Shown here piece after piece: positions 2,651-49,890 of a stretch of 49,890 nt of DNA (the first letter of the stretch is position 1; the number at the start of each line of letters is the position of its first letter). The stretch is taken from sequence record NC_049853.1; one strand, given 5' to 3'. A program made the translations under genes and the position numbers. The notes under the pieces were generated by a model. It made no database searches and was not told where the DNA came from. It saw only the letters and a program-made list of their open reading frames with translations. This stretch comes from Escherichia phage Henu8.

Positions 2651-3121
2651 ATGAGCGAAGAAAATATTAGCACCATGTCGCGTAGTGAGTTCTGCGATAT
2701 GCTTCGCAGCCTTGGCGCGGCAATTGGTAGCGGCGAGCGTAACAATGTATTCATGCCAGCACTTTTCTTGTGCGCTAACGTGGAGAACGGCGACGCAATT
2801 ACAGCATCGTACATGCGCCAGGTTGTCAACCGTGTGCCAGAAGTAAAGCAAAAAGGCGTGATCAGCATTAAGCGAAAGGTGACTGATGAGGGTGATGGCT
2901 TTGTGTTTACGCTCACTGAAGCCAAAAGCAAGCCTCGCGTGCTGACTGGAGACGATATAGCGAAACTTGAAATCAAGTGGCGAGCAAAGTTTATTGCTCA
3001 ACTTCTGAAAACTCAGCCGAGAATCAGCGATCTTGAAGGCGAGCGCCTGGAGGGTGCGGCAATCGCACTTGAGCGAATGAATGAAATGCTTAACGAGATG
3101 GTAAAGATGGGGGATGAATAA
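2651..3121 (+). CDS. hypothetical early protein (156 aa)
   Basis: ORF 2591..3121 trimmed to ATG 2651 with AAGGAG SD; the 2591 ATG lies inside the promoter -35. Confidence 0.6.
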   Translation: MSEENISTMSRSEFCDMLRSLGAAIGSGERNNVFMPALFLCANVENGDAITASYMRQVVNRVPEVKQKGVISIKRKVTDEGDGFVFTLTEAKSKPRVLTGDDIAKLEIKWRAKFIAQLLKTQPRISDLEGERLEGAAIALERMNEMLNEMVKMGDE

Positions 3122-3381
3122 TGAATAAGGCATTAATTGGAGTTTTGGTTGCAATCGCTACCCTGACCGGATGCGAAAAGGCATCTGAATCAACAGTTGT
3201 CGTAGGCGTGAGGTCGGATTTTAAAGTCGGTCGCCTGTTTACTGTTGATGGATGCACTGCGTACCGATTCTATGACAACGGTCGAGCAATCTATTACACC
3301 AATTGTAATGGCGCAACGGATAGCACATACCGGAGCGGCAAAAACGTAATGCACCAACAAGTCACAACAGATGTTAAATAG
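3121..3381 (+). CDS. putative lipoprotein (86 aa)
   Basis: N-terminus MNKALIGVLVAIATLTGC = signal peptide plus lipobox (LTGC); GGGGGA SD. Confidence 0.6.
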   Translation: MNKALIGVLVAIATLTGCEKASESTVVVGVRSDFKVGRLFTVDGCTAYRFYDNGRAIYYTNCNGATDSTYRSGKNVMHQQVTTDVK

Positions 3382-3421
3382 CACTTTTTGTTAAAACGCC
3401 AGGTGCAAATCCTGGCATAAT
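3376..3421 (+). promoter_or_regulatory. conserved phage promoter motif + -10 (CATAAT)
   Basis: AAATAGCACTTTTTGTTAAAAC (stop TAG embedded), 18-nt spacer holding inverted repeat GCCAGG..CCTGGC, then CATAAT at 3416-3421. Confidence 0.55.
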
Positions 3422-3453
3422 AGCCTCATCGAAACGAGATTGAGGAAAACAAA

Positions 3454-3639
3454 ATGGCACGTCGCATCACCAAAGACCTTAAAGTCCTGAACAAAGAAAA
3501 CGTAGTTAAAATCCTGGTCATCTGGGGATACAACGAAGAAACAGCAAAGCAGAAGGTAGAGGCAGGTTATGACCTGGCTGTAAAAGCAATGCCAAACGAC
3601 GACGCCAAAGGCATTGCAAACTATGTGGCTTTCTTTTAA
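3454..3639 (+). CDS. hypothetical protein (61 aa)
   Basis: ORF track; GAGGAAA SD. Confidence 0.55.
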   Translation: MARRITKDLKVLNKENVVKILVIWGYNEETAKQKVEAGYDLAVKAMPNDDAKGIANYVAFF

Positions 3640-3654
3640 TTAGCGGGTGAATAA

Positions 3655-3840
3655 ATGAAAACGAAATTAGTCCATAAATCAGAAATCAAGATCGGCGATA
3701 CTGTGATTCACAACGGCGAGCTTAGAACTGTTGGCAAAGAGTCAATAAGCCACGATGAATTTATGGGGATCTTGTTGTTCGGTGACTCTTATCGGTTGGG
3801 CTATAAAATGGTTGAGCTTGTGGAAGAGGTCAAATTCTAA
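3655..3840 (+). CDS. hypothetical protein (61 aa)
   Basis: ORF track; stop TAA directly abuts promoter motif. Confidence 0.55.
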   Translation: MKTKLVHKSEIKIGDTVIHNGELRTVGKESISHDEFMGILLFGDSYRLGYKMVELVEEVKF

Positions 3841-3884
3841 ATAGCACTTTTTGTTAAAACGCCAATCTAAAAACCTGGCATAAT
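3841..3884 (+). promoter_or_regulatory. conserved phage promoter motif + -10 (CATAAT)
   Basis: ATAGCACTTTTTGTTAAAAC at 3841-3860, 18-nt spacer, CATAAT 3879-3884; followed by conserved leader ACATAGGGCGGC. Confidence 0.55.
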
Positions 3885-3925
3885 GCATCACATAGGGCGG
3901 CACGGGCCGCAGTAACGAGGATAAT

Positions 3926-4111
3926 ATGATGAAATGCTTCACCACAAAAACAGAATGCGAAACCTATATCAAAGCCCAATATGGGGAATGTGCCTTTCAG
4001 GTTGGCGTAATATTCGCCTATCGCGTCAAGCCAATCGAAGCGAAGGCTTTTGGCGACCTGGTTGAAGGTTCATACATGGCCAGTAACGAGTTCGACGAGG
4101 TAACGCGTTGA
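3926..4111 (+). CDS. hypothetical protein (61 aa)
   Basis: ORF track; GAGGA SD. Confidence 0.55.
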   Translation: MMKCFTTKTECETYIKAQYGECAFQVGVIFAYRVKPIEAKAFGDLVEGSYMASNEFDEVTR

Positions 4112-4320
4112 TGAACTACATCCCAAAATGCCTCAGGGGGACACCTAAGGCAAAAACGAAGCCGCGCAGGCAGGCGATAAAGGAAGCCCAAGTGGCGGCG
4201 TTCAATCAGGCAATTAGCGTCGTGCTGGACAAGTGCCGAATTGAAAAATCTGAAAGGATGAAAGCGAACATGTACGCCGCAGTAAGCGAAATAGCGCGAC
4301 TGCGAGACAGTGTTAAATAG
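4108..4320 (+). CDS. hypothetical basic protein (70 aa)
   Basis: ORF track; ATGA overlap with upstream gene. Confidence 0.55.
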   Translation: MMNYIPKCLRGTPKAKTKPRRQAIKEAQVAAFNQAISVVLDKCRIEKSERMKANMYAAVSEIARLRDSVK

Positions 4321-4378
4321 CCAACCATGCCCCACTTCACGTTGGGCCAATAACTAATAACAGAGGTAAAATTCTGAA

Positions 4379-4422
4379 TAGCATTTTTTGTTAAAACTCA
4401 AAAACGATAACCAGGCATAATA
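4379..4422 (+). promoter_or_regulatory. conserved phage promoter motif + -10 (CATAAT)
   Basis: ATAGCATTTTTTGTTAAAAC at 4379-4398, 18-nt spacer, CATAAT 4417-4422; followed by leader ACATAGGGCGGC. Confidence 0.55.
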
Positions 4423-4474
4423 AATAACATAGGGCGGCGCGGCGTCGCCCACAAAACCAATCAGGAGAAACACC

Positions 4475-5362
4475 ATGTTAAAACTTGCTAACATTAAATT
4501 TCCGATCACCTTCGAATCTCGCGGCGTTGGTCACTTCATGTTTTCCGACGAAAATACATGCACTAAGTTTAACGAATACGGCAAGCCTGATGTTTCAACA
4601 ATGGAGATTGAGAACTTCATTGATGCGCATAACAAGCACTACAACTCACTCAAAGACTACGCCTACGCAATGCCAGGCTATACATGTTTCCACTACAAGC
4701 CATATAAAGGCCAGGTGCTTCCAGTTCGCTCACCAGAACGCGCAGAGATTCATACGGTCGAGATGAAAACCTGCGACTACAAGAAATTGTGGTGCTTAAA
4801 CGTGGATAATATCAAGTATCCGATTGTTTTTCATTGTGGCGGTTCAACAATCAGGTACACATCTCGCGACAATGGCGTTTATAGCGATGGTCAGAAATCC
4901 GAGTTGAAAGTTGATTTCTTTGTTAATGGTCATAACAAATTCAATCCACACAACGAAAAAGATAAGGTGTATTACGTGGAAGATATTACAAAACACTTGT
5001 TTGGAGAAACTCCATTCGGCGGCGGAAAGACGTCAATTCAACAAATCATTGGCGAGGAGATCCACAAGGCAGCCGTTAAAATGAAAGCGCCTGGAGGCTG
5101 GCGTATTGACAAGAGCGCCTTTGCCTATCAAGAAATCGTAACTCAGGGCGCAATTGAACATATGCCAGTTGCAGCCACGCTAAAAGGCGTCCAAATTGCT
5201 GATGGCGCATGGTTTGAATTAACGGCAAAACCAAAGACGATCGAGATTCATGATGACGTTGTTATTCTTCTTCTTCACTATGGCAGCGCGAAAAGCCGGA
5301 CGGTTGCAGGAGAGATCAGCATCAAGCGCGGAACGATGGTTAAGTGGAAGGTTAAAGTGTAA
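4475..5362 (+). CDS. hypothetical protein (295 aa)
   Basis: ORF track; AGGAGA SD; no motif recognised by eye. Confidence 0.65.
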   Translation: MLKLANIKFPITFESRGVGHFMFSDENTCTKFNEYGKPDVSTMEIENFIDAHNKHYNSLKDYAYAMPGYTCFHYKPYKGQVLPVRSPERAEIHTVEMKTCDYKKLWCLNVDNIKYPIVFHCGGSTIRYTSRDNGVYSDGQKSELKVDFFVNGHNKFNPHNEKDKVYYVEDITKHLFGETPFGGGKTSIQQIIGEEIHKAAVKMKAPGGWRIDKSAFAYQEIVTQGAIEHMPVAATLKGVQIADGAWFELTAKPKTIEIHDDVVILLLHYGSAKSRTVAGEISIKRGTMVKWKVKV

Positions 5363-5405
5363 ATAGCACGAATTGTTAAAACTCAAATGTGGGGCCAGGT
5401 ATAAT
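5363..5405 (+). promoter_or_regulatory. conserved phage promoter motif (variant) + -10 (TATAAT)
   Basis: ATAGCACGAATTGTTAAAAC following stop TAA; 17-nt spacer; TATAAT at 5400-5405. Confidence 0.5.
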
Positions 5406-5435
5406 GGCCTCACTTTCAACGAAGGGGATAAAGCG

Positions 5436-5681
5436 ATGATTATTGAACAGCATTTTCTTTGCGTTAAGAGCAATAGACCATTCTTCACGCCTGGAAAGAT
5501 GTACCAGGGCAAGAAGAATGGCAAGGACGGTCATTCTTATCACGTCCATTGCAATAACGGTAGCAAGTTCTACCTGAATGGATGCGGCGGCACTAAGATT
5601 ATGGCATTTGATCACGTAATTGCTGAATTTGAGCAAATCACCGACGCTGAATTTGAGGAAGTGAAAGATGGAAACAAATAA
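5436..5681 (+). CDS. hypothetical protein (81 aa)
   Basis: ORF 5373..5681 trimmed to ATG 5436 (AGGGGA SD; upstream ATG would sit inside promoter). Confidence 0.55.
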   Translation: MIIEQHFLCVKSNRPFFTPGKMYQGKKNGKDGHSYHVHCNNGSKFYLNGCGGTKIMAFDHVIAEFEQITDAEFEEVKDGNK

Positions 5682-5889
5682 GCGCGTTAAGCACAAGTTT
5701 ATTGATAATCATGGCGATGCACTTGAGGTATACAAGTTCGGCGATCGCGTGTTTATTGATGGCACGTTTCAAGGTGGAAGTATGCCGGATTTTAGGTCGA
5801 TACTCACCATTGACCAGGTGCGCAAGCTGGCGGATAAGTTAAATGATCTGGCAGATGAAATCGAATACAAGCAAATTCATTTTAATTGA
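5668..5889 (+). CDS. hypothetical protein (73 aa)
   Basis: ORF track; GAGGAAG SD; overlaps upstream gene. Confidence 0.55.
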   Translation: METNKRVKHKFIDNHGDALEVYKFGDRVFIDGTFQGGSMPDFRSILTIDQVRKLADKLNDLADEIEYKQIHFN

Positions 5890-5900
5890 TAGGTTTTATA

Positions 5901-6440
5901 ATGAAAAAATACGAATTTGAACTTTGGGGCAGTAAATACCATTTTTCCACGAGCAAGCCGATTGTTATCGTTGACCTGGACGGCACGTTATCAGACGGAA
6001 CGCATCGCTTGCACCTGCTTCCGAAAGAAGATTTGCACCTTACAGAAAGCTGGTCTGAGTTCAATAAGGCGGCTGTTGGCGATTCGCCGATTAAGAGCAC
6101 GGTTGCAGTGGTTAACGGTTTGTGGATGTCAGGATTTGCCATCGTTATCCTGACCGGACGCAGCGATGAAGTGATGGCTGACACCTGCGACTGGTTAAAT
6201 TATAACGGCATCAAGTACGATGCGTTAATCATGCGCCGCAAGGAAGACAACCGCAAAGACACAATCATCAAAGAAGAAGTATTGCGCGCTATCGGACTGG
6301 AAAACATTGTGTGCGCTTTTGATGATTCGCCGAACGTGGTTAAGCACTTCCGCAGCCTGGGAATCACAACCTATCAGGTCACGGAATACGACAAGCCACA
6401 TAATCATATCCAATCGCATGGCGTGGAGGAATTGAAATGA
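5901..6440 (+). CDS. HAD-superfamily phosphatase (polynucleotide 3'-phosphatase-like)
   Basis: N-terminal VIVDLDGTL (DxDGT HAD motif I), later GRS and terminal FDD motifs. Confidence 0.6.
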   Translation: MKKYEFELWGSKYHFSTSKPIVIVDLDGTLSDGTHRLHLLPKEDLHLTESWSEFNKAAVGDSPIKSTVAVVNGLWMSGFAIVILTGRSDEVMADTCDWLNYNGIKYDALIMRRKEDNRKDTIIKEEVLRAIGLENIVCAFDDSPNVVKHFRSLGITTYQVTEYDKPHNHIQSHGVEELK

Positions 6441-6622
6441 CCTGGTTACTTGTATTTTTAGTTGTTTTCTTTTATATTTCAGGATTATTCATCTTCCGCG
6501 CATTGGTTAAAGAGTGTGATTGCACTGATAAAGATCAGCCTCTTGTTCTGATGTTCTGGTTTGTGTGGTTTTGGGTGGCGCTTTACCAGATTGTACGGGA
6601 TGAAAGCGGCTTTAAGTGGTGA
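6437..6622 (+). CDS. small membrane protein (61 aa, two hydrophobic segments)
   Basis: ORF track; GGAGGA SD; LLVFLVVFFYISGLFIF and LVLMFWFVWFWVALY segments. Confidence 0.5.
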   Translation: MTWLLVFLVVFFYISGLFIFRALVKECDCTDKDQPLVLMFWFVWFWVALYQIVRDESGFKW

Positions 6623-6817
6623 TTCTTACTATAGCGCATTCATGCAGTGCGCTATGTTTGAGATAACAACATGAGATCATGAAGATGCGAAACTTCGAAA
6701 AAATCGTATCCAAAAAGAAGCGATACAGCTACCACGAGCACCAAGAGATGAATCAACGCTATCGCAATAAGCGCCAGCGCAAAGGTAAACATTACGGTAA
6801 ACATGGAGAAAATCAAT

Positions 6818-7408
6818 ATGAAACGCGACATTATCATTCTTAACGGACCGCCAGGAGTTGGCAAAGATACGCTTGCGGCATACTTAACGGGTCATCGTTA
6901 CGCAGCGGTTAAAGCGTCTTTTAAACAGCCTATGTTCGATATTGCATTCTCCATGCTTGGCGTTTACAGATATGACGAGTTCATTGATCTGTATAACGAC
7001 CGCGAGCAGAAAGAAAAGCCTCAAGCAATCTTGCAAGGCAAGTCTCCGCGACAATTCATGATCTGGATTAGTGAAGAAGTCATGAAGCCGGCTTTTGGCG
7101 AGCAATATTTTGGGAATCGCATGGTTGAGCAAGTACACGAGATGTACAGAGATTTGGCTGTTGTAATTAGCGATGGCGGATTCCCTGAAGAAATCAAGCC
7201 GCTCGTTAAGGCAGGCCATGAAGTTCACATTTGCCGACTGCATCGCGAAGGTTTCACGTTTGATGGCGATTCGCGAAACTATATTGACCTGAGCGGATAC
7301 CATCACCGCGTCAAGCATTACGACTTCACAATGACTGATGGCGAGCCAGAAAAGACTGTTGACGAGATCATCAAAACTGTCCAGTGGAAACACATTAAGA
7401 TCAAATAG
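6818..7408 (+). CDS. P-loop nucleotide kinase (dNMP kinase / polynucleotide kinase-like)
   Basis: Walker A GPPGVGKDT near N-terminus; GGAGA SD before ATG 6818 (trimmed from 6803). Confidence 0.6.
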   Translation: MKRDIIILNGPPGVGKDTLAAYLTGHRYAAVKASFKQPMFDIAFSMLGVYRYDEFIDLYNDREQKEKPQAILQGKSPRQFMIWISEEVMKPAFGEQYFGNRMVEQVHEMYRDLAVVISDGGFPEEIKPLVKAGHEVHICRLHREGFTFDGDSRNYIDLSGYHHRVKHYDFTMTDGEPEKTVDEIIKTVQWKHIKIK

Positions 7409-7448
7409 CACGAATTGCTAAAAGCGGGGCGCAATGCCTCGCTATAAT
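7405..7448 (+). promoter_or_regulatory. conserved phage promoter motif (variant) + -10 (TATAAT)
   Basis: AAATAGCACGAATTGCTAAAAG with embedded stop TAG; 18-nt spacer; TATAAT 7443-7448. Confidence 0.5.
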
Positions 7449-7479
7449 GCAAACACCAATCAACGAGAGGAATTGGAAC

Positions 7480-7881
7480 ATGTTAGAGCTTAACGACATT
7501 CGCGTTGGAACAAAATTTCGCGTAACCTGGGCAGATGAATATTGCGGCGTTAGCAGGGGGCAGGTTGTTACGGTGGATAGTATTTATCGCGGATGCAGCA
7601 AAGACTTTCGCCGCCCACGCATCAAGAATGGCTATATCATTACTCGCCGTTTTGGCTTTGATCATTATTGCGTAGTGGCGACTCAAGGAGTTTTGATTGA
7701 GCTTCAGCGAATCAGCGATCATCGCGGCTGTCATGTCAAAACAACGAAGATACCATCTCAGCGATCGCGATACGATGCGCGCAGGATGCGCAGGCTTGCA
7801 CGAAACGCGATCAAGTTCAAAAAGCATGGTGGTAACTTTTACCGAATGTACAAAGGGATTGCGCGAAATGCTGGAAAATAA
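7480..7881 (+). CDS. hypothetical basic protein (133 aa)
   Basis: ORF 7447..7881 trimmed to ATG 7480 (GAGAGGA SD); the upstream ATG overlaps the -10 box. Confidence 0.55.
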   Translation: MLELNDIRVGTKFRVTWADEYCGVSRGQVVTVDSIYRGCSKDFRRPRIKNGYIITRRFGFDHYCVVATQGVLIELQRISDHRGCHVKTTKIPSQRSRYDARRMRRLARNAIKFKKHGGNFYRMYKGIARNAGK

Positions 7882-7980
7882 CAACAACGCAACCAATCCA
7901 AAGCCGCCATTTGATTTTCATGAAATCATGATTGTGTTATTCTTGATTCTCTTAGTTGTTTATTCAGTGAGGGCCGCAAT

Positions 7981-8244
7981 ATGGTTTTTAATGCACTAAA
8001 ACGAATCTTTAAACCTGAATACCGGATCGTTGCTTGCACAGAATGTAAGATTTATTACCTGCAACGCCGCCGCGTTATTAGTGGGGATTGGGAATATCTT
8101 ACGGATGATGCTTTCGGCTTTTGGGCTATGGAGTTCAATAGCTACAGCGAAGCGCGTGAATACGCTAAAAAGTTGCACAAGTTCAGACCTTACAAGCTGC
8201 GTTTGCTGGTTGTCAAAAAATGCGATGTGTGGGATCACGAATGA
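7981..8244 (+). CDS. hypothetical protein (87 aa, Cys-x2-Cys pair)
   Basis: ORF track; GAGGG SD. Confidence 0.5.
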   Translation: MVFNALKRIFKPEYRIVACTECKIYYLQRRRVISGDWEYLTDDAFGFWAMEFNSYSEAREYAKKLHKFRPYKLRLLVVKKCDVWDHE

Positions 8245-8420
8245 AAAGAGTAATTATCATTTTTATTGCCCTTATCGCTGGTTGCTACCTGGCATATAAT
8301 TATAGCGGCATTGTTGAGTCAATCGGCGGGTTGATTATCTTCATGGCTGGCGGGTATGCTGGCTATTATGATGGATTCGAAAACGGAAAGCGTTACATGC
8401 TGACCGGAAAAAAGAAGTAA
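8241..8420 (+). CDS. small membrane protein or lipoprotein (59 aa)
   Basis: ATGA overlap with upstream stop; MKRVIIIFIALIAGCY (possible lipobox IAGC) and Gly-rich hydrophobic segment. Confidence 0.45.
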   Translation: MKRVIIIFIALIAGCYLAYNYSGIVESIGGLIIFMAGGYAGYYDGFENGKRYMLTGKKK

Positions 8421-8463
8421 TGTTAACCGCGCCGCTTCGGTGGCGCTAAAAGGAGGAAACAAA

Positions 8464-8751
8464 ATGGCTAAAAGCAATCGTAAAATGTTGATTAACGCAT
8501 TCGAAAAGGCGGCGTTTGAGCGTGGTTGGAATGACTCATTTCACACGGCAAACTGTATCCGCCGTTACGGATTCAAGAATTGCCGCTCATGGGCGCGTCA
8601 AATGGCTTCATGGTATGATCTTGATGCACATTACCTTGATATGGATTGCGCCCTGGTTGAAATGATTGAGCAGGCCGCACTAGAGGATCGACCATTAACG
8701 CAATCTGATTTTGACGATTTTGTGCGCGATGAAATCTATTACATGAGCTAA
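8464..8751 (+). CDS. hypothetical protein (95 aa)
   Basis: ORF 8440..8751 trimmed to ATG 8464 with AAAGGAGGAAA SD. Confidence 0.6.
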   Translation: MAKSNRKMLINAFEKAAFERGWNDSFHTANCIRRYGFKNCRSWARQMASWYDLDAHYLDMDCALVEMIEQAALEDRPLTQSDFDDFVRDEIYYMS

Positions 8752-8794
8752 TAGCACTTTTTGTTAAAACTTCCGCGAGGGCATTTGTTAAAGT
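8751..8794 (+). promoter_or_regulatory. conserved phage promoter motif + weak -10 (TAAAGT)
   Basis: TAATAGCACTTTTTGTTAAAAC with stop TAA embedded; 18-nt spacer; TAAAGT. Confidence 0.35.
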
Positions 8795-8826
8795 GTCCTC
8801 ATTGAAGCGAAGCAGAGGAAATCAAA

Positions 8827-9039
8827 ATGAAAATTCGAATCACCAGGGTTGACATTGACCGCAATGACGGAAGCATTACCCTTGAGCAATGCGGATTCAA
8901 AGTTGGTGACATTGTAGAGGTTGACGGATTCTTTCGCGATGGTTCTTACTGCGTGTTAGCAATCCGCAACACGGAAGAAATTCGAATCGGTGATAACATC
9001 GGCGTAAACCATGACGAATGCGAGGTAGTAGAGGAATGA
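8827..9039 (+). CDS. hypothetical protein (70 aa)
   Basis: ORF track; GAGGAAA SD. Confidence 0.55.
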   Translation: MKIRITRVDIDRNDGSITLEQCGFKVGDIVEVDGFFRDGSYCVLAIRNTEEIRIGDNIGVNHDECEVVEE

Positions 9040-33356: not shown

Positions 33357-33437
33357 ACAGCACAAATAGCTAAACAAATGAAAAATGCGGTGTTATAATT
33401 CACCGCATAAGTTAACAACAAGCGTAAGGAAATAAAC

Positions 33438-35498: not shown

Positions 35499-37799
35499 TT
35501 AACTCTCAAGAGTTGTTGGCTTGTTGATCAATGCAGAAACAACCGCTTTCAGTTCTGCAACCTCCTTTTCAAGTTTGCTTATGCGATCATCGCTTTCACG
35601 GCACACTTTCACCAGCAATCCAGTAACAGCGCCATAATCAACAGATAAGAATCTTTCCTCGCCAACTAACTGATTTCCATCCTTAGTTGGACCAGCAAGA
35701 TCCGTGTACTGAGTGAATCCGCCAACCGCTTCCGGTATTGCCTCCATTACTTCTTGAGCAATTACCCCAGCATAAGGTAAACCATTCTCCTTAAGCGTGT
35801 AAGTGTATCCGCTCATTTTGCGCAATGATTCAGTTGCGTTCTCAATCTCCTCAATGTTGTCCTTAAGATCTCTGTCAGATGCTTGATTGAATGCTGTCGC
35901 ATTTACATGGCCGTTAACTTGAAGATACTTTGAGTTATCTTTATTTAACTGACAGTAAAAACCCCACCCAGGGCCGTTATCGAAAGACCACTCAATAACT
36001 GACGGTCGATCGTTACCGTTCCCCCACAATGAGAAGGTTGCAGGATTTGATGAGTTACCATCATTAAGCATTTTGAAATACTTGCCACTCGGTCGGTCGA
36101 TCTCCAAGCTAGACGCCTGGATATATGCTTTTCCCGCAAAGTTCTTAGTCCCCAGCACAACCCCGTCGGTGTGCAATTCAACCTTAGAGGACGTAATATC
36201 GTTCAGGAACAGTGCGCTAGTACCGGTGTCCTTCCCTAAAAACCAAAGACGTGTTCCTGCTGAGTTGTACCCTGTTACGTGCAGTGGTTGGTTGTTTGTT
36301 GACGCTGTTCCGTCGATCCGGAAGCCACCATTAGCGGTTGTAACTTTAATGCTGGGTACGGTCATAGCAAATGTGCCACTGGCTGCAAGACCGTTATACG
36401 CGATCAGCTTGTTGTCATATGCAATCTCACCATTGTCCCTTAATTGCAAGAATTTATTAGATACTGAGTTGGAAACAGATACATCATTAGGCCATGTGCG
36501 AAGAACTGCGCGCTTTCCGTTCCCTCTAGCCTCCACCGAAGAGCCAGCAACAACATTGTTACCAATAATTTCACCACCAAAAGAAACGTCTCCGCCTGGA
36601 GTGAGTAACATGCATCTTTTGATCAGCGCTGAATTGTTTCTATAAGAATAGATCGCGTAATTCGGGCCATAAAAGCCAGCCCTAAAACCAGGTTGACCGT
36701 CAGCGGATAGGTAAACAGTCCAGCAACCACTACTAGATTCATCCGACGAACGTTGAATTTTTACCGCGTCTTGACTTCCTTTGAATAATTGAGAGCCAAC
36801 AAAAGTGTTTGAAACATTTAGACCAGGAGCATCAAGATTCTTTCTTGCTCCAGGAGCATTTTTCGCACCTGTTCCACCTTTATTTATTGGCAAAGCTACA
36901 TCAGATTTCGATGTAGAATCCCACATCCCCCAATCGCCATTATTTTTTACGAAAATCCGCTTTGTTCCATCAGCACTTGAAACAACAGTTTCACCATTTA
37001 CATCATTGCCTTGCAATAATCTGTCTACGCTTAGGTTTTTTCTTGCTTCACCTTTATCTTCGACATCGCTAAGGTTGTTGTTTTTGTTAAGAATATTTGC
37101 AGGATTTATGCTATCTGCATATTCTTTCGCCTTATCTTCAGAAGCCTTAGCGGCATTTTTTGAATCCAGAGCATCAGAAGCAGATCTTGCAGCTTCGCTC
37201 TTGCTTGCATTGGCTGAATTCTCTGAATTTTTGGCATTTGTCTCCGACGTCTTTGCTGCATTCTGAGAAGCGAGCGCAGCATCCTGAGAATTTTTAGCGG
37301 CATTCTTGCTTGCATTGGCTGCATTTTCAGATGCTTTAGCGTTAGTCTCCGATGCTTTAGAGTTTGTCTCCGAAGTCTTTGCGGCGGCAGCGCTTTGTTT
37401 TGCTGATTCAGCGCCTTGCTTGACTTGATTTACAAGATCTTTCAATCCTTCAAGATCAAAGTCTCTAAAAAATTCAATTGCATCCGCGATCTCTGTTTCT
37501 TTGCTTTGATAGTAACGCAATGTTTCAGCTACATCTTGAGCAAGACCATCAACAGTTATTGAGTCATGAAGTAAGATCGCGTAATTTGAACGGGTAACTA
37601 CCGCGCCACCAGTTGTAATTGCACGAATGCTTGTATCGTTAATAACTTCAGTTATCACGGCAATCTGCAACGGCTGAGTTAAAAATACAATAGTTGCACC
37701 AGGGCGAATGAGCGTTAGTTGCTCTCGCCATTTTGTGTCGTATCCAGTGATATAACCTTGCGCGTCCATTGACGCTTGTCCTGTTCTGTAAATTGCCAT
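35499..37799 (-). CDS. tail fibre protein with C-terminal intramolecular chaperone (S74-like) domain
   Basis: Trimmed to ATG 37799 (GGAGA SD); Ala/Ser/Asn-rich tandem repeats ([22 protein letters not shown]...); C-terminal [15 protein letters not shown]...[17 protein letters not shown]. Confidence 0.75.
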
Positions 37800-38830: not shown

Positions 38831-38885
38831 ATGCACCTCAAACAAAAAAGCCTGACAGATGATAACATCATGCCAGGCATTGTTT

Positions 38886-39359
38886 TTAGCAATTAGTGCT
38901 TTCAGGTTTATACAGGAATCCGCCAGGCTCATAATCTGACATTCTTACCACTCGCAACATTTCACGCTTATCACATCTCTTTGTGAGCGGTTTGCCATTG
39001 GAATCAAATCGCAGATCTGGACGGCAGAATGACGCGCGATAGCCTTGACAGCCATACTTTTTGTAATCGTTATGCACCTTTTGAGCGCCAGCGGCTGAAA
39101 TCATACCGCGAACTCGCCACTGATTTACAGTTTGCTGGCTAACGTTAAGACGTTTTGCCATTGCTGACACACTTCCGTAATACTCAATAAGGATGTCAAG
39201 TCTCGCTTTTAGTCCGGCGCGCACTTCATCTTTTAAAACATAGTATCCAGTAGGGCGCTTGCGCTTCTTCTTATCTTTACCCCGTCGAGTTCCGTTATTG
39301 CCATTAATTGTGCGCTTGTCAATCTTGCCAGTTGATACTGCGATTCGCTGTTCTTTCAT
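38886..39359 (-). CDS. HTH DNA-binding protein
   Basis: 157 aa; GGAGA SD; helix-turn-helix-like AKRLNVSQQTVNQW; basic Lys/Arg-rich N-terminus. Confidence 0.55.
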   Translation of the reverse strand: MKEQRIAVSTGKIDKRTINGNNGTRRGKDKKKRKRPTGYYVLKDEVRAGLKARLDILIEYYGSVSAMAKRLNVSQQTVNQWRVRGMISAAGAQKVHNDYKKYGCQGYRASFCRPDLRFDSNGKPLTKRCDKREMLRVVRMSDYEPGGFLYKPESTNC

Positions 39360-39448: not shown

Positions 39449-41488
39449 ATGATTCCAAACATTGAAAAGCAAATATCAGCACTTGGTGAAGCGGTAATTA
39501 AATCCATTCAGGAGCGATTCACTGTTGGCGATATTGTGCCTTACCCTTACCAGTGCGTTGCATACGCTGAGATCGCAAGGCGTATGAAAAATTATGAGCA
39601 TCCATTCTTTGTTAAAGCGTCCGTATCGGCTGGCAAAACATTGATGTTTGCAATGGTTGCTCACCAGTGCCGGAAAATGGGATTGAAAATGATGGTCCTT
39701 GCTCGCCAGGCTGAGATTGTGGATCAGGATTCTGAAGAGATAACAAATCTTGGAGTGCCGAACTCCATCTATTGTGCAGGACTGAAGACAAAAAGCGCAT
39801 ACTTTCCGATCGTTGTTGGTTCTGAGGGAACTGTAGTTAATGGGCTGTTTAAAGCGCTTGGCGACTATGTTCCGCACGTTATCGGTATTGACGAGTGTCA
39901 CCAGGTGGATTGGGAAGATCTTGCCGACGCAATAGAGAAAGACGAATCATTTTTACAAATGACGACGAAGAAAGGCGAAAAAGTACCAAATCCAGATTAT
40001 GACATAACGAGCGATAACGAATGCAAAGAGTTCCTGATTGGTGAGGATGGCTTGCCAATGGAGGGAACAGGCCGCACACAATACACTGTCATTATCATGG
40101 AAATGATGCGCCGCTGCCGGAAAACATATGGTCATGAACTGCGCATATTTGGAATGACTGGATCGGAGTTTCGCGGCTTAGTCCCGATCTTGGTGGAAGA
40201 CAAAAAACAGAAAGGATTCTGGCGTGAACAGGTTACTAATATTGACACCAACTACCTGATCAAATTCGGTTCTGTTGTGCCAACAAATTTTGGCGACGTT
40301 GGCGATCTAGGGTATGACCTTTCAGAGTTTGAGGCATCCAGTGAGGATGGAGTTGCAGACTTTGACGCTAAAACGCTTCGCAGGATGGAACAAAAAATTC
40401 ATGAAGAAGCTACCATGACAAAGCGCATCATGGCGAAAGTTCACGAGATCTGTAAAAAACGCAACGGCGTACTTGTGACATGTGCAGGAGAAAGGCATTG
40501 CAAAGAGGCAGCGGCATCATTGCCACCTGGAACGACTTACAGGATCATTACTGGTAAGACTGGCGACAACCAGCGCAAGGAGTGGTTGAAAGAAGCATAC
40601 GAGGGAAAGGTAAAATACATCTTCCAGGTTCAGGCGCTAACTACTGGCGTTAACGTGCCGTTTTGGGATACGTCTGTTATTCTGCGTAAGATTGGATCGC
40701 TAACTTTGCTGATTCAGCTTTTAGGACGCGGAATGCGACTTCTTAAGAAATGGCATAAGGAACAAGGATTCAAGAAAGATGATCACCTTGTTATGGATTT
40801 TTCAGGAACGATGGACGAGTTAGGTGAGCTTTATTTTGACCCGATACTGGAACAGGCGCAACATCAGAAGCGATTCAGGAACGGTAAAGATCCGAAGCCT
40901 TGTCCTGTTTGTGGAACTCTTAACAGCTATTATGCTCGTCGTTGTATGCACGTAGACGAAAACGGCAACAGATGCGAGTGGTTCTTTAAATTCAGGACAT
41001 GTGATGATCAGATTGACCCGCGCACTAAAAAGATTATTCATCGAGGCTGTGGAACTAAAAATGATATTGCGGCCAGGGTGTGCAGACATTGCGACATGTC
41101 ATTGATTGACCCTAACGAGAAGTTAAGCGGAAAGCACTACACAAAAAACGACTGGTTCCAGGTGCAATCTTTCTCGGTTGACATGACGAAAAACCAGAAA
41201 GGGATAATATTTAATTATGAGCTTTCCGATGGCATAGACACTTTCAGGGCGAGAGAGATATTTTTCCCTGAATCTGAGAGCCAAATTTGCCGCGCAAAAT
41301 GGCGAAGCGTTGCTCTTAAGCACATACCAGATCGCCGTGTTGCTGGCATGGTGGCGAGCTATCGTAATGCACGTAAAATCATGCAATATGTGAATCACAT
41401 CATGCCACCATCGCGTGTAACTCACCGCAAGACTAGCAAGGGTGAAGATAATTTGTACAAGAAGGACTTTAATTATGGCAATGACTGA
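39449..41488 (+). CDS. ATP-dependent helicase (SF2, DECH box) with C-terminal zinc-ribbon region
   Basis: Trimmed to ATG 39449; Walker A-like SVSAGKT, DECH motif, C-terminal CPVCG...C...CEW...C...C..C..CRHC cysteine cluster. Confidence 0.7.
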   Translation: MIPNIEKQISALGEAVIKSIQERFTVGDIVPYPYQCVAYAEIARRMKNYEHPFFVKASVSAGKTLMFAMVAHQCRKMGLKMMVLARQAEIVDQDSEEITNLGVPNSIYCAGLKTKSAYFPIVVGSEGTVVNGLFKALGDYVPHVIGIDECHQVDWEDLADAIEKDESFLQMTTKKGEKVPNPDYDITSDNECKEFLIGEDGLPMEGTGRTQYTVIIMEMMRRCRKTYGHELRIFGMTGSEFRGLVPILVEDKKQKGFWREQVTNIDTNYLIKFGSVVPTNFGDVGDLGYDLSEFEASSEDGVADFDAKTLRRMEQKIHEEATMTKRIMAKVHEICKKRNGVLVTCAGERHCKEAAASLPPGTTYRIITGKTGDNQRKEWLKEAYEGKVKYIFQVQALTTGVNVPFWDTSVILRKIGSLTLLIQLLGRGMRLLKKWHKEQGFKKDDHLVMDFSGTMDELGELYFDPILEQAQHQKRFRNGKDPKPCPVCGTLNSYYARRCMHVDENGNRCEWFFKFRTCDDQIDPRTKKIIHRGCGTKNDIAARVCRHCDMSLIDPNEKLSGKHYTKNDWFQVQSFSVDMTKNQKGIIFNYELSDGIDTFRAREIFFPESESQICRAKWRSVALKHIPDRRVAGMVASYRNARKIMQYVNHIMPPSRVTHRKTSKGEDNLYKKDFNYGND

Positions 41489-41894
41489 TAAAGGCGATTA
41501 TCTGGAGTTTTACGAAAGAGATCCGACGGATACGCTAAAGGAGGAATCACACCAGATCGGGGCGTTTCAATGGTTAACTTATGCTCATCATGAATTGCTG
41601 GCATGGCATACGAAAAACGAGGGTGACAAGGGGATCGCCACCGCAATGATGGATCAGCAAGCCGGACTCGTTAAGGGCGTAAGTGATTTTATCATCCTGA
41701 TTGGATTAAAAGGCCGTTACCCTTTCGCGGCTATTGAGATGAAACGCGTCAATAAGTCTGGCAAGGGAAAGGCTTCACCAGTCAGCAAGGATCAAAAAGC
41801 CTTCTTGCGCCGCGTGCGTGAGCTTGGCGGATTCGCTGCCGTAACATACGGATACAAGCAATTTATGATCGCGGTCGAATACATGATGAAATAG
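41475..41894 (+). CDS. VRR-NUC-type nuclease (PD-(D/E)XK)
   Basis: Trimmed to ATG 41475; ...VSDFIILIG...AAIEMKR... (D...E-x-K) core. Confidence 0.55.
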   Translation: MAMTDKGDYLEFYERDPTDTLKEESHQIGAFQWLTYAHHELLAWHTKNEGDKGIATAMMDQQAGLVKGVSDFIILIGLKGRYPFAAIEMKRVNKSGKGKASPVSKDQKAFLRRVRELGGFAAVTYGYKQFMIAVEYMMK

Positions 41895-41934
41895 CACTTT
41901 TTGTTAAAACAGGCGCGAAGGATTGCGCCATAAT
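41891..41934 (+). promoter_or_regulatory. conserved phage promoter motif + -10 (CATAAT)
   Basis: AAATAGCACTTTTTGTTAAAAC with stop TAG embedded; 18-nt spacer with inverted repeat GGCGC..GCGCC; CATAAT 41929-41934. Confidence 0.55.
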
Positions 41935-41968
41935 AACACCAGTTCAACAGGCAACAGGTAATTAAGAA

Positions 41969-42670
41969 ATGAGTAAAGAAACTGAAGTGACATTTGAACA
42001 AATAGAACGAGAAACATTCATTGGCAATGCTCTTGCTACTGGAGGCCATTACCAGGCCGTTAAACCAAATCAATATTATAAAGTCACTGGCAACCGCTAT
42101 AACGGCAGCAATACGCCGGACGTTGTGCGAGATTTGTGGTCTACGCCGTCTGAGCTTGTCGCATGGATGGAAATCGAATACGGTGATTATGACATCGACG
42201 CGGCGGCAAGCAAAGAAAATGCTGTATGTGAAAAATTCTACAGCAAGGAAACAAATTGCTTAAAGCGTTGGTGGGGTAGTAATAAGCATATATGGCTTAA
42301 TCCACCGTACAGCAATATTACGCCATTTGTTAAGAAGGCGATTGAGCAAATGGAGCACAACAACCAGATCGACATTCTGTTACCTTGCGACACATCGACA
42401 GGATGGTTTTATGAGGCACAACAGAAAGCAGCGGAAATAATCTGGATCACTGGCGAAGTTTACCAGGAGGACGGAACAGAATATTCCCGCACCGGACGCC
42501 TGGCGTTCACTTCAGCGCTTACAGGTAAACCAGTGCAGGGTAACAATAAAGGAAGCGTTATTTTCATCATGCGCGAACTTAAAGAAGGTGAGCAGCAGAA
42601 AACGCGATACGTTAAAATCAGCGACATTTGCCCTTCAGTGGCAGATCGTCGCGCACGGAAACGGAGCTAA
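41969..42670 (+). CDS. dam: DNA N6-adenine methyltransferase (phage Dam-type)
   Basis: 233 aa; NPPY catalytic motif (WLNPPYSN). Confidence 0.75.
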   Translation: MSKETEVTFEQIERETFIGNALATGGHYQAVKPNQYYKVTGNRYNGSNTPDVVRDLWSTPSELVAWMEIEYGDYDIDAAASKENAVCEKFYSKETNCLKRWWGSNKHIWLNPPYSNITPFVKKAIEQMEHNNQIDILLPCDTSTGWFYEAQQKAAEIIWITGEVYQEDGTEYSRTGRLAFTSALTGKPVQGNNKGSVIFIMRELKEGEQQKTRYVKISDICPSVADRRARKRS

Positions 42671-42674
42671 AACC

Positions 42675-42932
42675 ATGCAGAAAGAAAGAAGAGTTTTACT
42701 TAATGAATATGGCGAATTTCTTTTGTATCGCGCTATGGTATGCGATGCGCTTGATAAAAACCCCAACGTGAAAAAGATGATTGATTGCGATCCGTGGGAA
42801 TTTTCAAGCGCATTAGATATGAGCTTTGAGGAGACAAAAAAACTCCCGCTTGAAAAATGGAACGAGCAAATCAGAAATGACATGCAAGAATTTGTCGATT
42901 CGTGGAATTTTCAGCACGGAATGATCCACTAA
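42675..42932 (+). CDS. hypothetical protein (85 aa)
   Basis: ORF 42588..42932 trimmed to ATG 42675 just after the dam stop. Confidence 0.45.
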   Translation: MQKERRVLLNEYGEFLLYRAMVCDALDKNPNVKKMIDCDPWEFSSALDMSFEETKKLPLEKWNEQIRNDMQEFVDSWNFQHGMIH

Positions 42933-42975
42933 TAGCACTTTTTGTTAAAACGCCCGGCCTTGTGTCGGGCATAAT
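42932..42975 (+). promoter_or_regulatory. conserved phage promoter motif + -10 (CATAAT)
   Basis: TAATAGCACTTTTTGTTAAAAC with stop TAA embedded; 18-nt spacer; CATAAT 42970-42975. Confidence 0.55.
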
Positions 42976-43007
42976 TATTTCATCAAAACGAACAAGAGGA
43001 AAATAAA

Positions 43008-48451: not shown

Positions 48452-48480
48452 TGATGATAACTCCTTTTTTTGATGCGGCA

Positions 48481-48525
48481 ATAATACCGCACCAATGCTA
48501 CCCGCATTTAACAAAAAATGCTATT
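48481..48525 (-). promoter_or_regulatory. conserved phage promoter motif + -10 (TATTAT)
   Basis: Minus-strand AAATAGCATTTTTTGTTAAA with stop TAG of gene 48521..48742 embedded; TATTAT about 20 nt downstream. Confidence 0.45.
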
Positions 48526-48742
48526 TGATCCGCTCTATGCTAACTAAGATTTTTTCTGGTTCCCTTGCGCTATTGCAATGCGCGGTTACAGAATCAGCAA
48601 AATCAAAGTAAAGTGATTTGTGATATGATAATCCAATCAGCCACCCAACCATTGTTTTCTTTATTGGCCTGACTATATCGCCAGGCTTGAAGGTTTTTGT
48701 TGCCGAATGAGTCACCTTATAGCGATATTCAGCCTTGATCAC
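48521..48742 (-). CDS. hypothetical protein (73 aa, GTG start)
   Basis: ORF track; GTG overlapping TGA of upstream gene; GAGG 10 nt upstream. Confidence 0.45.
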   Translation of the reverse strand: MIKAEYRYKVTHSATKTFKPGDIVRPIKKTMVGWLIGLSYHKSLYFDFADSVTAHCNSAREPEKILVSIERIK

Positions 48743-49125: not shown

Positions 49126-49156
49126 CGTTTATTTCTCCTTTCGTTTCGGTGAAGTG

Positions 49157-49200
49157 ATTATGCCAGGCTTTTACACCTGGCTTTTAACAAAAAGTGCTAT
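49157..49200 (-). promoter_or_regulatory. conserved phage promoter motif + -10 (CATAAT)
   Basis: Minus-strand AAATAGCACTTTTTGTTAAAAG with stop TAG embedded; 18-nt spacer with GCCAGG..CCTGGC inverted repeat; CATAAT. Confidence 0.55.
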
Positions 49201-49890
49201 TTTGCGTTTGCTTCAAAGACGGCGCGAGCAAAACCGCGCGGTGTGAGGGAGCGGATCATCTTTGTGCGAGATGATTTTCCGCCAGTTTTGACCCAACCAG
49301 GATTATCCTTGTTGTCCTCTTTCGGAAGGATTGTTGCGCGCGGAGGAATAACAAATCCGTTTCCAGTCCAAAGGCATGTTTTCTTAAAGTACCGATCCCG
49401 CGCCGGAATAATATCAGGAAAGTCGGGATGTTTATCATCTTCCGACAGATAGCCAGCATAATCGCACGGATGGAACGTATAATCAGGCTTGCGCCATAGC
49501 GTTGACAGCTTGCCTACAGGATTCTCTATCATGTACGGAACACCGAAATAATCAGCAATTTGCGCAGCAATTTTGCAAGTGTCGGCGGCCTCATCCTGGA
49601 ACGCTGGATTCTCAAGGCGTTTTTTGGTCCAATGGCGAGATCCGCTATTTGCAAGGTCAGTGCACGGCGGAAATGCCATAATGAAATCAGGCTTGCCCCA
49701 ATTTTCAAGTTTTGCGGTATATTTGAATAGCTCATCAATCCACACATTAACGTAAAAAATATTATCATGGATTATGCGCACTGACTGGTAATCACCGTGA
49801 TCGCCACCGTCAGAATTAAAGCAAATGCATTTATATCCAGCATCAGCCCAATCTTTAACGGCTTTACCAGATCCATCAAACAAAGAGAAT
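49197..49890 (-). CDS. DNA methyltransferase-like protein (C5-cytosine MTase-like PC and ENV-like motifs), partial, N-terminus beyond window end
   Basis: Open to window edge; FPPCTDLANSG (PC motif-like) and MIENPVG (ENV-like) about 45 aa apart. Confidence 0.4.
   Translation of the reverse strand, partial: FSLFDGSGKAVKDWADAGYKCICFNSDGGDHGDYQSVRIIHDNIFYVNVWIDELFKYTAKLENWGKPDFIMAFPPCTDLANSGSRHWTKKRLENPAFQDEAADTCKIAAQIADYFGVPYMIENPVGKLSTLWRKPDYTFHPCDYAGYLSEDDKHPDFPDIIPARDRYFKKTCLWTGNGFVIPPRATILPKEDNKDNPGWVKTGGKSSRTKMIRSLTPRGFARAVFEANAK

Follow-up and report, generated by a model that had tools for sequence, protein, structure and literature searches.

The window, the whole 49,890-nt stretch of Escherichia phage Henu8 DNA that was analyzed (NC_049853.1), is from a T1-like coliphage (Drexlerviridae, Hanrivervirus) and is 94-96% identical in nucleotide sequence to KarlJaspers, pSf-1 and egaa. 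Its early genes each follow a conserved cassette, ATAGCAC-TTTTT-GTTAAAAC-N18-(C/T)ATAAT, in which the N18 spacer is variable and the -10 hexamer is followed by the leader CATCGAAACGA and then by a Shine-Dalgarno sequence. Nineteen copies of this cassette were found in the window. As originally predicted, a CCWGG site lies flush against the -10 hexamer in five of them, and all of the predicted positions were verified (Table 1). CCWGG does end an 18-nt spacer in these promoters, as had been proposed; this spacer runs from GTTAAAAC to the -10 hexamer, and not from a canonical -35 hexamer to the -10. The window also carries genes for a Dcm-like and a Dam-type DNA methyltransferase (MTase).

Table 1. 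Promoter cassettes with CCWGG against the -10 hexamer, and DNA methyltransferase genes, in the 49,890-nt window
Feature	Position	Strand	Details
Promoter cassette 1	3378..3421	+	ATAGCAC..GTTAAAAC; dyad GCCAGG (3398-3403)-TGCAAAT-CCTGGC (3411-3416); -10 CATAAT 3416-3421
Promoter cassette 2	3841..3884	+	CCTGG 3874-3878 against -10 CATAAT 3879-3884
Promoter cassette 3	4378..4421	+	CCAGG 4411-4415 against -10 CATAAT 4416-4421
Promoter cassette 4	5363..5405	+	CCAGG 5395-5399 against -10 TATAAT 5400-5405
Promoter cassette 5	49157..49200	-	CCAGG (49180-49176)-TGTAAAAG-CCTGG (49167-49163); -10 CATAAT 49162-49157
Dam-type N6-adenine DNA methyltransferase gene	41969..42670	+	NPPY motif (WLNPPYS); Pfam PF05869, E 6.7e-61
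Dcm-like C5-cytosine DNA methyltransferase gene	49197..>49890	-	Stop codon 49197-49199; assigned from motifs, homology and fold

The promoter family was sampled as 497 unique cores in 205 clusters. Across these cores, A-11 of the -10 hexamer was invariant (1.00) and T-7 nearly so (0.99), with G-14 at a frequency of 0.88, G-13 at 0.59 and C-16 at 0.40; T was the commonest base at position -15 (0.41, versus 0.05 for A). The cassettes resemble extended -10 (TGn) sigma-70 promoters in A-11, T-7 and the TG at -15/-14, and also in a -35 element that is weak or misplaced, with TTGTTA at a distance of 22 nt from the -10 and TTAAAA at 18-19 nt. They differ from such promoters in the modest frequency of T-15 and in favoring G-13 as well, and conservation of their 22-nt upstream block, ATAGCAC-TTTTT-GTTAAAAC, far exceeds the need of a -35 or UP element. 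Among the five window sites, the three with CCTGG place TGG before the -10. A standard sigma-70 scan called only cassette 4 among the four plus-strand cassettes. A literature search found no relevant published description of the T1-family promoter motif and no transcription start site maps or data for Drexlerviridae, and no Rfam family matched anywhere in the window.

The region around the -10 hexamer is predicted to fold. Segments of the promoter family from -30 to +8 had an average minimum free energy (MFE) of -9.95 versus -4.58 for shuffled sequences (mean z -2.56), and positions -18 to -14, paired in 69-76% of clusters, were the most often paired part of the dyad. Double changes were compensatory, preserving rather than breaking pairing in a ratio of 110:25, versus 17:49 to 45:38 in shifted controls. 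The dyad sequences vary from cassette to cassette (GGCGC/GCGCC, GCCCG/CGGGC, GGGGCC/GGCCTC and ATGCGGTG/CACCGCAT). Of the five CCWGG promoters in the window, three had significant hairpins with the site as an arm. The hairpin of cassette 1, which has two CCWGG sites (3399-3403 and 3411-3415), had an MFE of -11.5 kcal/mol (z -3.2); in cassette 4, the GGGGCC/GGCCTC dyad straddles the -10 hexamer (MFE -16.4, z -4.8); and cassette 5, which directly follows the dcm stop codon, had an MFE of -9.2 (z -2.4). Cassette 2 has only a weak 4-bp GCCA..TGGC dyad (z -0.5), and cassette 3 has no dyad (MFE 0).

Three spacer hairpins of phage T1 (38973-39001, 39998-40024 and 41980-42007) are annotated as terminators in the RefSeq record NC_005833, and the window hairpins resemble them in combining a GC-rich stem in the spacer of a motif promoter with a following T-rich -10 region. 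Unlike these annotated rho-independent terminators, which come nearer to the definition of an intrinsic terminator, the five CCWGG cassettes lack a U-tract behind the stem and do not qualify as such. No terminator-like site was called on the plus strand between 3300 and 5500, and only one cassette, at 38892 on the minus strand, overlaps a canonical terminator. The dyad may act as a leaky terminator or as a 3'-end stabilizer for upstream transcripts. The hairpin over -18 to -13 and the -10 is a structurally conserved element of T1-family cassettes that genome annotations variously label as a terminator.

CCWGG was found to be enriched in the window promoters, as the original prediction required. 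Five of the 19 cassettes carry the site exactly at -17 to -13 and the other 14 do not. The probability of at least five such cassettes was 1e-9 given the genome density of the site (123 sites per 49,890 nt); the corresponding values were 8e-6 under an independent-column position weight matrix (PWM) of the promoter family and 0.002-0.01 given the rate observed in the family (4.8-7.3%). In total, the 19 cassettes contain 8 CCWGG sites versus about 1.2 expected. Across the family, CCWGG occupied -17 to -13 in 24 of 497 cores and 15 of 205 clusters, with CCTGG outnumbering CCAGG by 13:2 at the cluster level, and TCGGG was commoner at this position (21 clusters). The 15 clusters represent an excess of approximately 3.6-fold over the independent-column expectation (about 4.2), which probably stems from two sets of paralogous spacers, the GCCAGG/CCTGGC and the CTAAAAACCTGG family. 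Kinship is also evident within the window: cassettes 1 and 5 (promoters 3388 and 49190) have the spacer GCCAGGTG.AAA..CCTGG in common, and a paralogous leader, ACATAGGGCGGC, is found in both cassettes 2 and 3 (promoters 3851 and 4388). The five sites are therefore not independent. The enrichment of CCWGG in promoters has a simpler cause than methylation control.

The presence of CCWGG at this position is a trait confined to close (Hanrivervirus) relatives. The window has five such promoters and the close relatives L126 and L140 have four and five, respectively, while none of the 17 promoters of TLS, which carries dcm, has CCWGG at -17 to -13, and none was found in T1 or Rtp, which lack the gene. 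In the other dcm-positive loci, the site was present in 2 of 105 promoters, equal to the PWM expectation of 2%, versus 0 of 71 in dcm-negative loci, the latter representing two lineages only (T1 and Rtp-like). The site was not kept in orthologous promoters, with replacements such as AACCTGG to AACGCGG; orthologous clusters had TATTGC, TTTGG, CTTGC or AACGCGG at this position, and in one leader cluster CCWGG occurred in 1 of 11 members. No switching between CCAGG and CCTGG was seen inside orthologous promoter clusters, and selection for a Dcm site thus gains no support of this kind.

The original prediction had assigned C5-MTase-like motifs to a gene at 49197..49890. The motifs were confirmed; the gene runs on the minus strand, and its 5' end is cut off by the end of the window, which holds 230 of its 236 codons. 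Motif I (FxGxG, AdoMet binding) is SLFDGSG, in which F4, G6, S7 and G8 do not vary among 40 homologues. Motif IV is FPPCTD, with a catalytic C76 that is invariant in 66 relatives (34-54% identity) and corresponds to C82 of K42 Dcm, and in motif VI (ENV-type glutamate; IENP), P124 never varies and E122 and N123 hardly vary. Sequence-profile searches covered Pfam, NCBIfam and the PDB, the last by phmmer and with a profile of the 66 sequences. Pfam PF00145 scored 11.1 bits (cut-off 22; E 0.27) and matched only 2 of the 66 relatives at E<0.01, NCBIfam gave no match, and the PDB profile match to DNMT2 had an E of 0.7. Since all of these searches fell below significance, the fold was compared. An AF2 model (pLDDT 90.7, pTM 0.89) was searched against the PDB with Foldseek, and the top 45 matches were all catalytic domains of DNMT3A, DNMT3B or DNMT3C (best E 1.7e-6; TM 0.41-0.53). 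The protein is thus structurally nearer to DNMT3 catalytic domains than to E. coli Dcm or M.EcoRII. It resembles the latter two enzymes in its motifs I, IV and VI, in C5 methylation and probably in its target, but is half their size, lacks the large target-recognition domain and has no significant PF00145 or NCBIfam match.

An orthologue of this gene has been studied in phage K42, a relative of KarlJaspers. The 711-bp K42 dcm gene, equal in length to that of the window, makes 5-methylcytosine (5mC) and triggers the retron Ec86 (bioRxiv 10.1101/2023.08.16.553469). The 5mC content of Ec86 msDNA rose when K42 Dcm was expressed but not with a C82A/E128A/K175A/K176A mutant, and mutation of CCTGG in the msDNA abolished defense against K42; the dcm-positive host MG1655 alone had low 5mC on msDNA, and the CCWGG target was taken over from E. 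coli Dcm, not measured (bioRxiv 10.1101/2023.08.16.553469). The window protein is 95.7% identical in amino acid sequence to KarlJaspers (Bas06) bas06_0055 over 230 residues, its PPC catalytic cysteine and ENP motif match residues mutated in K42 (C82 and E128), and its gene occupies the same place as in K42 and KarlJaspers, upstream of two small ORFs and a DUF3987 helicase. Nothing substantive distinguishes it from these orthologues, as the missing 6 codons reflect only the end of the window. Collectively, the motifs, the modeled fold and the published activity of the K42 gene indicate that the window gene encodes a genuine C5-cytosine MTase, one already characterized as a trigger of retron Ec86.

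Genome-wide counts of CCWGG and GATC, the check proposed with the original prediction, revealed no excess under a maximal-order Markov model (123 CCWGG sites versus 120 expected; 272 GATC sites versus 262). Genome-wide selection on the CCWGG 5-mer was rejected on this basis, since the 2.5-fold excess over dinucleotide shuffles (48.5 expected) vanished under the Markov model and results from the sub-words CTGG/CCAG (467 versus 335) rather than from the 5-mer itself. Comparison among phages showed a link to MTase carriage. The observed-to-Markov ratio of CCWGG was about 1.09 in dcm-positive sets versus 0.84 in dcm-negative T1-like sets, depletion being seen only in T1-like phages without the gene, and CCWGG density was 1.85-4.6/kb in dcm-positive versus 1.0-1.8/kb in dcm-negative loci. 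CCWGG ranked 4th of 2552 words in this contrast, and GATC ranked 1st in the corresponding contrast for Dam, with 72 GATC sites in Rtp, which has no annotated dam, versus 235-281 in phages with the gene. A Dam with an NPPY motif was indeed found to be encoded in the window, downstream of a motif promoter at 41891-41934. Transitions among relatives at the inner cytosine of CCWGG, as a signature of 5mC deamination, were not significantly more frequent than in C[C]W controls (8.3% versus 6.0%) in an underpowered sample of 25 kb at about 2x depth. The site-density contrasts, of CCWGG with dcm and of GATC with dam, offer inexpensive in silico support for the targets of these enzymes, and CCWGG specificity of the phage MTase is plausible.

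The original prediction held that methylation of the promoter sites could modulate early transcription. On such a reading, transcription would depend on methylation by host Dcm or the phage enzyme, with 5mC at the inner cytosines (-16 of the top strand and, on the bottom strand, opposite G-14) changing RNA polymerase binding. Methylation could, on physical grounds, alter promoter strength, since a methylated template-strand C across from G-14 would fall at the place read by sigma region 3.0 in extended -10 promoters. The excess of CCWGG in the 19 cassettes, its overlap with the extended -10 position, the activity of the phage MTase during infection in a close relative and the position of dcm directly upstream of one such promoter are all consistent with this possibility. 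They are opposed by the failure of orthologous promoters in other genera to keep the site, by its absence from TLS and most other dcm-positive lineages, by the many cassettes of the same genome that lack it, and by the 13:2 preference for CCTGG, which points to selection for T-15/G-14 and not for W. Because the GG of the site belongs to the consensus and its CC to the variable dyad arms, methylation-tuned early promoters are very unlikely. Methylation-sensitive promoters include the Dam-controlled IS10 pIN, phage P1 cre, Mu mom and pap, in which the site is conserved and the effect demonstrated; we know of no Dcm-controlled phage promoter. The window cassettes resemble these systems in that an MTase target overlaps a core promoter element, but differ in that the site is not conserved in orthologues, is present in a minority of cassettes and can be explained by consensus and dyad. 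By analogy with the control of IS10 or P1 cre by Dam, 5mC at the five Hanrivervirus early promoters might alter sigma-70 region 3.0 contacts and give methylated incoming DNA a promoter strength unlike that of newly replicated DNA still awaiting methylation, in a Dcm-based temporal switch, a proposal that we regard as more improbable still. If true, promoter methylation would be the first instance of a virulent phage with a Dcm-dependent promoter switch, and the widespread small phage C5-MTases would have a role additional to anti-restriction. The evidence points away from a methylation switch, and the sites follow from promoter architecture.

Two further explanations were weighed. If the phage MTase had a specificity other or looser than CCWGG, the co-occurrence with promoters would be meaningless even as a protection target. 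The small size of the protein (236 aa) with its very short motif VIII-X stretch, the lack of detectable similarity to E. coli-type Dcm models, the CpG specificity of the DNMT3 enzymes nearest in fold and the low msDNA 5mC in MG1655, which suggests that the phage enzyme behaves unlike host Dcm, all favor such a difference. Nevertheless, the effect of the retron CCTGG mutation on defense against K42, the density contrast between dcm-positive and dcm-negative loci, and the placement of CCWGG and its sub-word CCAG in the top 4 of 2552 words depleted in T1-like phages without the gene make a different specificity unlikely. The CCWGG dyads could also be operators for a phage or host protein that recognizes GCCAGG..CCTGGC, given that promoters 3388 and 49190 have nearly the same dyad and that a putative HTH regulator equivalent to T1 gp23 is among the phage's gene products. 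Dyads that differ between cassettes and covary between orthologues imply selection on pairing rather than on a common recognition sequence; operators are accordingly the least probable reading, and this hypothesis was rejected.

Promoter CCWGG is therefore best regarded as a probable by-product of the promoter consensus, the dyad and paralogous copying, with MTases that would methylate the genome as a whole for protection. The near-invariant G-14, the common G-13 and the preferred T-15 of an extended -10-like element would fix the WGG half of the site, and the preference for T-15 favors CCTGG over CCAGG. A GC-rich inverted repeat in the spacer or -10 flanks, variable in sequence but maintained in pairing, would place a dyad arm at -18 to -13, where arms such as GCCAGG/CCTGGC would account for the CC and would create a second, upstream CCWGG in two promoters. 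Copying of paralogous cassettes in the Hanrivervirus lineage would have raised the count to five. The cluster-level excess over the independent-column expectation counts against this by-product reading, as does the CCAGG of cassette 3, which has neither a dyad nor T-15 and is explained only by G-14/G-13 and descent. The co-occurrence of Dcm sites and promoters is thus largely ordinary. The small, divergent C5-MTase and Dam very probably protect the genome against restriction by methylating every CCWGG and GATC site, and the promoter sites would be methylated in the same way as the approximately 115 others, serving no regulatory function of their own. An anti-restriction purpose, offered in the original prediction as the plain alternative to promoter control, fits the family-wide link of dcm and dam carriage to CCWGG and GATC density.

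Megablast searches with window positions 3000-9000 and 48400-49890 matched 227 and 142 phage records, respectively. The best matches were Hanrivervirus (Drexlerviridae, Tempevirinae) genomes, including KarlJaspers (Bas06), pSf-1, egaa, PGN590 and others, with identities of 94-97%; the window is therefore essentially a T1-like coliphage genome. Reading of 3300-5500 combined with a motif scan revealed one promoter cassette in 19 copies across the window, comprising ATAGCAC-(T/G)(T/A)(T/A)TT-G(T/C)TAAAAC, about 18 variable nt, (C/T)ATAAT, a leader resembling CATCGAAACGA and a Shine-Dalgarno sequence. The original prediction had placed CCWGG, the Dcm target, directly against the -10 of at least five promoters, and all of its coordinates proved correct on sequence reading and motif scan: in 5 of the 19 cassettes CCWGG occupied -17 to -13, flush with the -10 hexamer. 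In two of these five, at 3388 and 49190, the spacer also began with a further CCAGG. Relative to the genomic density of 123 sites per 49,890 nt, sites were enriched in promoters (P ~1e-9), in keeping with the original prediction. The promoter CCWGG observation is real and non-random.

Positions of the promoter CCWGG sites and the methyltransferase gene in the window
Feature	Position	Strand	Basis or remark
CCWGG adjoining -10	3411-3415	+	motif scan
CCWGG adjoining -10	3874-3878	+	motif scan
CCWGG adjoining -10	4411-4415	+	motif scan
CCWGG adjoining -10	5395-5399	+	motif scan
CCWGG adjoining -10	49167-49163	-	motif scan
Dcm-like C5 cytosine methyltransferase ORF	49197-49890 (stop 49197-49199; runs past window end)	-	corresponds to residues 7-236 of bas06_0055

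In all 19 cassettes, as at 3388-3397, the conserved block GTTAAAAC ended 18 nt from the -10; TTGTTA therefore lies 22 nt and TTAAAA 18-19 nt from it. Of the four promoters within 3300-5500, a standard sigma-70 scan called only one. Conservation of the 22-nt upstream block ATAGCAC-TTTTT-GTTAAAAC exceeded the need of a -35 or UP element, and an additional factor may bind there. The transcribed leader from the -10 to the Shine-Dalgarno sequence was also conserved across cassettes and genera (CATCGAAACGAG / CACCGAAACGAA), as in most window cassettes, including 3422-3445 and 49156-49135 (-).

To define the promoter family, about 1.4 Mb of T1-like sequence was gathered from an IMG/VR exact-match scan with the 20-mer ATAGCACTTTTTGTTAAAAC, the complete genomes of T1, Rtp and TLS, and 17 helicase-centred loci, yielding 497 unique cores in 205 clusters. 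Alignment of these cores on the -10 gave A-11 at 1.00 and T-7 at 0.99, preceded by G-14 at 0.88, G-13 at 0.59, T-15 at 0.41 (A-15, 0.05), C-16 at 0.40 and T-17 at 0.64. Since G-14 and G-13 are this frequent, the GG of the promoter CCWGG is simply promoter consensus, and the preferred W is T, giving the TG of an extended -10. CCWGG occupied -17 to -13 in 24 of the 497 cores and 15 of the 205 clusters (CCTGG in 13, CCAGG in 2); TCGGG was commoner, with 21 clusters, and TTTGG, TCCGG and TGCGC occurred at comparable frequencies. With independent columns, CCWGG is expected in 2.0%, or about 4 clusters, leaving a residual excess of about 3.6-fold. Two spacer types that recur, GCCAGG-loop-CCTGG and CTAAAAACCTGG, made up much of this residue and look like paralogous copies.

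GC-rich inverted repeats were frequent in T1-like promoter spacers. When -30 to +8 was folded for one representative of each of the 205 clusters, the mean MFE was -9.95 kcal/mol versus -4.58 for shuffled sequence (mean z -2.56), and 62% of clusters had z below -1.64. The positions most often paired were -18 to -14 (69-76%), the same place as CCWGG. Within orthologous clusters, double changes at predicted pairs left 110 still paired and 25 broken, versus paired:broken ratios of 17:49, 45:38, 19:35 and 30:22 in controls that displaced the pairing partner by 1-2 nt. The conserved feature of the dyad is its pairing, not its sequence. CCWGG formed a stem arm in the window promoters at 3378..3421 (GCCAGG/CCTGGC, z -3.2), 5363..5405 (GGGGCC/GGCCTC, straddling the -10; z -4.8) and 49157..49200 (CCAGG/CCTGG, z -2.4); it paired weakly at 3841..3884 and was unpaired at 4378..4421.

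In T1-family cassettes the dyad lay either within the spacer or straddling the -10, with examples in the window (3378-3440, 5363-5425, 33357-33400, 41891-41940, 42932-42980 and, on the minus strand, 48524-48470 and 49200-49140) and in T1 (38963-39010, 39986-40030, 41966-42015). The T1 RefSeq record labels three of these spacer hairpins, followed by the T-rich -10 region, as rho-independent terminators. A simple scan called no terminator on the plus strand of 3300-5500, and a true U-tract was found in the window only in the minus-strand cassette at 38892. This cassette, in 38902-38850 (-), overlaps a canonical intrinsic terminator, GCCTGGCATGATGTTATCATCTGTCAGGC then TTTTTT (MFE -18.1, z -5.9), which contains CCTGG at 38873-38877; its T1 equivalent is 35930-35971. 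The dyad may act as a leaky terminator or insulator, or as a 3'-end stabiliser of read-through transcripts from upstream cassettes.

Promoters with CCWGG at -17 to -13 were concentrated in one group of phages. The window had five, and its close relatives L126 and L140 had four and five, respectively, compared with 0 of 17 promoters in TLS, which carries a dcm-like gene (dcm+), 2 of 105 in other dcm+ lineages, and 0 of 71 in phages without the gene (dcm-), namely T1, Rtp and Rtp-like loci. The CCWGG rate equalled the PWM expectation once the Hanrivervirus-like loci (L125, L126, L140) were set aside. Among orthologous promoters with the same leader, one phage had AACCTGG where others had TATTGC, TTTGT, TTTGG, CTTGA, CTTGC or AACGCGG, and no cluster showed alternation of CCAGG and CCTGG. 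Phages that have the enzyme would be expected to conserve a site for methylation control; the promoter CCWGG is not conserved. The suggestion that methylation could modulate these promoters was not supported. It is physically conceivable, though very improbable, that 5mC at -16/-14 directly affects promoter strength. The promoter CCWGG is best accounted for by the -10-proximal consensus, an arm of the conserved GC-rich dyad and paralogous spread within one genus.

The KarlJaspers homologue of the window methyltransferase, bas06_0055, is annotated "Dcm-like C5 cytosine methyltransferase", and the TLS copy is already named dcm. Profile and sequence searches with the window protein gave no significant match: Pfam PF00145 scored 11 bits (E 0.27), NCBIfam models did not match, and PDB searches gave DNMT3B at E ~1 (phmmer) and DNMT2 at E 0.7 (profile). 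PF00145 matched just 2 of 66 relatives; the motif IV Cys was invariant across 66 relatives of 34-54% identity, and the window motifs are FDGSG (I), PPC (IV) and ENP (VI). An AlphaFold2 model (pLDDT 90.7, pTM 0.89) had DNMT3A/3B/3C catalytic domains as all of its top 45 Foldseek PDB matches (best E 1.7e-6, TM 0.41-0.53). Homologues are abundant: tblastn matched 1501 phage records, and clusters at 50% identity numbered 1201 by their representatives. Together they form a widespread family of small (~230 aa) phage C5-methyltransferases, with members that include Drexlerviridae, Dhillonvirus, rV5-like and Klebsiella phages, essentially invisible to the PF00145 and NCBIfam models.

A preprint has examined the 711-bp dcm gene of K42, a phage with 95.4% genome identity to KarlJaspers: escapers of retron Ec86 carry mutations in it, and its expression increases 5mC in retron msDNA, whereas a C82A/E128A/K175A/K176A mutant does not (10.1101/2023.08.16.553469). 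These results bear out the assignment of the 49197 protein as a cytosine methyltransferase; the methyltransferases are genuine and had been described before. The CCWGG specificity of K42 Dcm was assumed from E. coli Dcm, its sole support being the loss of defence on mutation of the msDNA CCTGG, and is tentative, since msDNA methylation was low with the dcm+ host by itself (10.1101/2023.08.16.553469).

Genome-wide, the window contained 123 CCWGG sites, an excess over dinucleotide shuffles (48.5) and not over the maximal-order Markov expectation (120); GATC numbered 272 versus 262 expected. The excess resided in CTGG/CCAG (467 versus 335), as is usual for E. coli-like coding sequence, and not in the CCWGG 5-mer. 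CCWGG occurred at 1.85-4.6 per kb (observed/Markov ~1.06) in dcm+ genomes and loci versus 1.0-1.8 per kb (0.63-0.94) in dcm- ones. When observed/Markov ratios of 2552 sufficiently frequent 4-6-mers were contrasted between the pooled sets, CCAG ranked second and CCWGG fourth (613/561 versus 274/328, z 3.7). GATC ranked first because the Rtp-like phages lack dam; in Rtp, for which no dam is annotated, GATC occurs 72 times in 46 kb, versus 235 in T1, 281 in TLS and 272 in the window. These counts fit CCWGG being protected by the enzyme and avoided where the gene is absent, the dcm- set comprising only two lineages. The simplest role of the methyltransferases is genome-wide protection, the alternative that the original prediction had offered, with promoter sites incidental.

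CCWGG density and observed/Markov ratio tracked the dcm-like gene across the window and loci L122-L141, as GATC density tracked dam (Rtp and Rtp-like loci L134-L139 versus the window, T1 and TLS). A genome-wide test for transition hypermutability at the inner cytosine of CCWGG was negative and underpowered. In a single case, the L076 orthologue of 49180-49176 has CTAGG for the upstream CCAGG of the window, a C-to-T change at the inner, methylatable cytosine that loses the Dcm site while the dyad can still form an RNA G-U pair; the genome-wide bias was not significant. Neither CCWGG nor GATC was avoided in the window relative to Markov expectation. Several 6-bp palindromes were nearly absent (observed/Markov: AAGCTT 0/17.8, GGCGCC 1/19.2, GGATCC 0/11.3, GAATTC 1/13.8), and other restriction-type palindromes were also strongly avoided (GATATC 0/9.7, AGGCCT 0/9.3, CCGCGG 0/9.1, GGCC 70/135).
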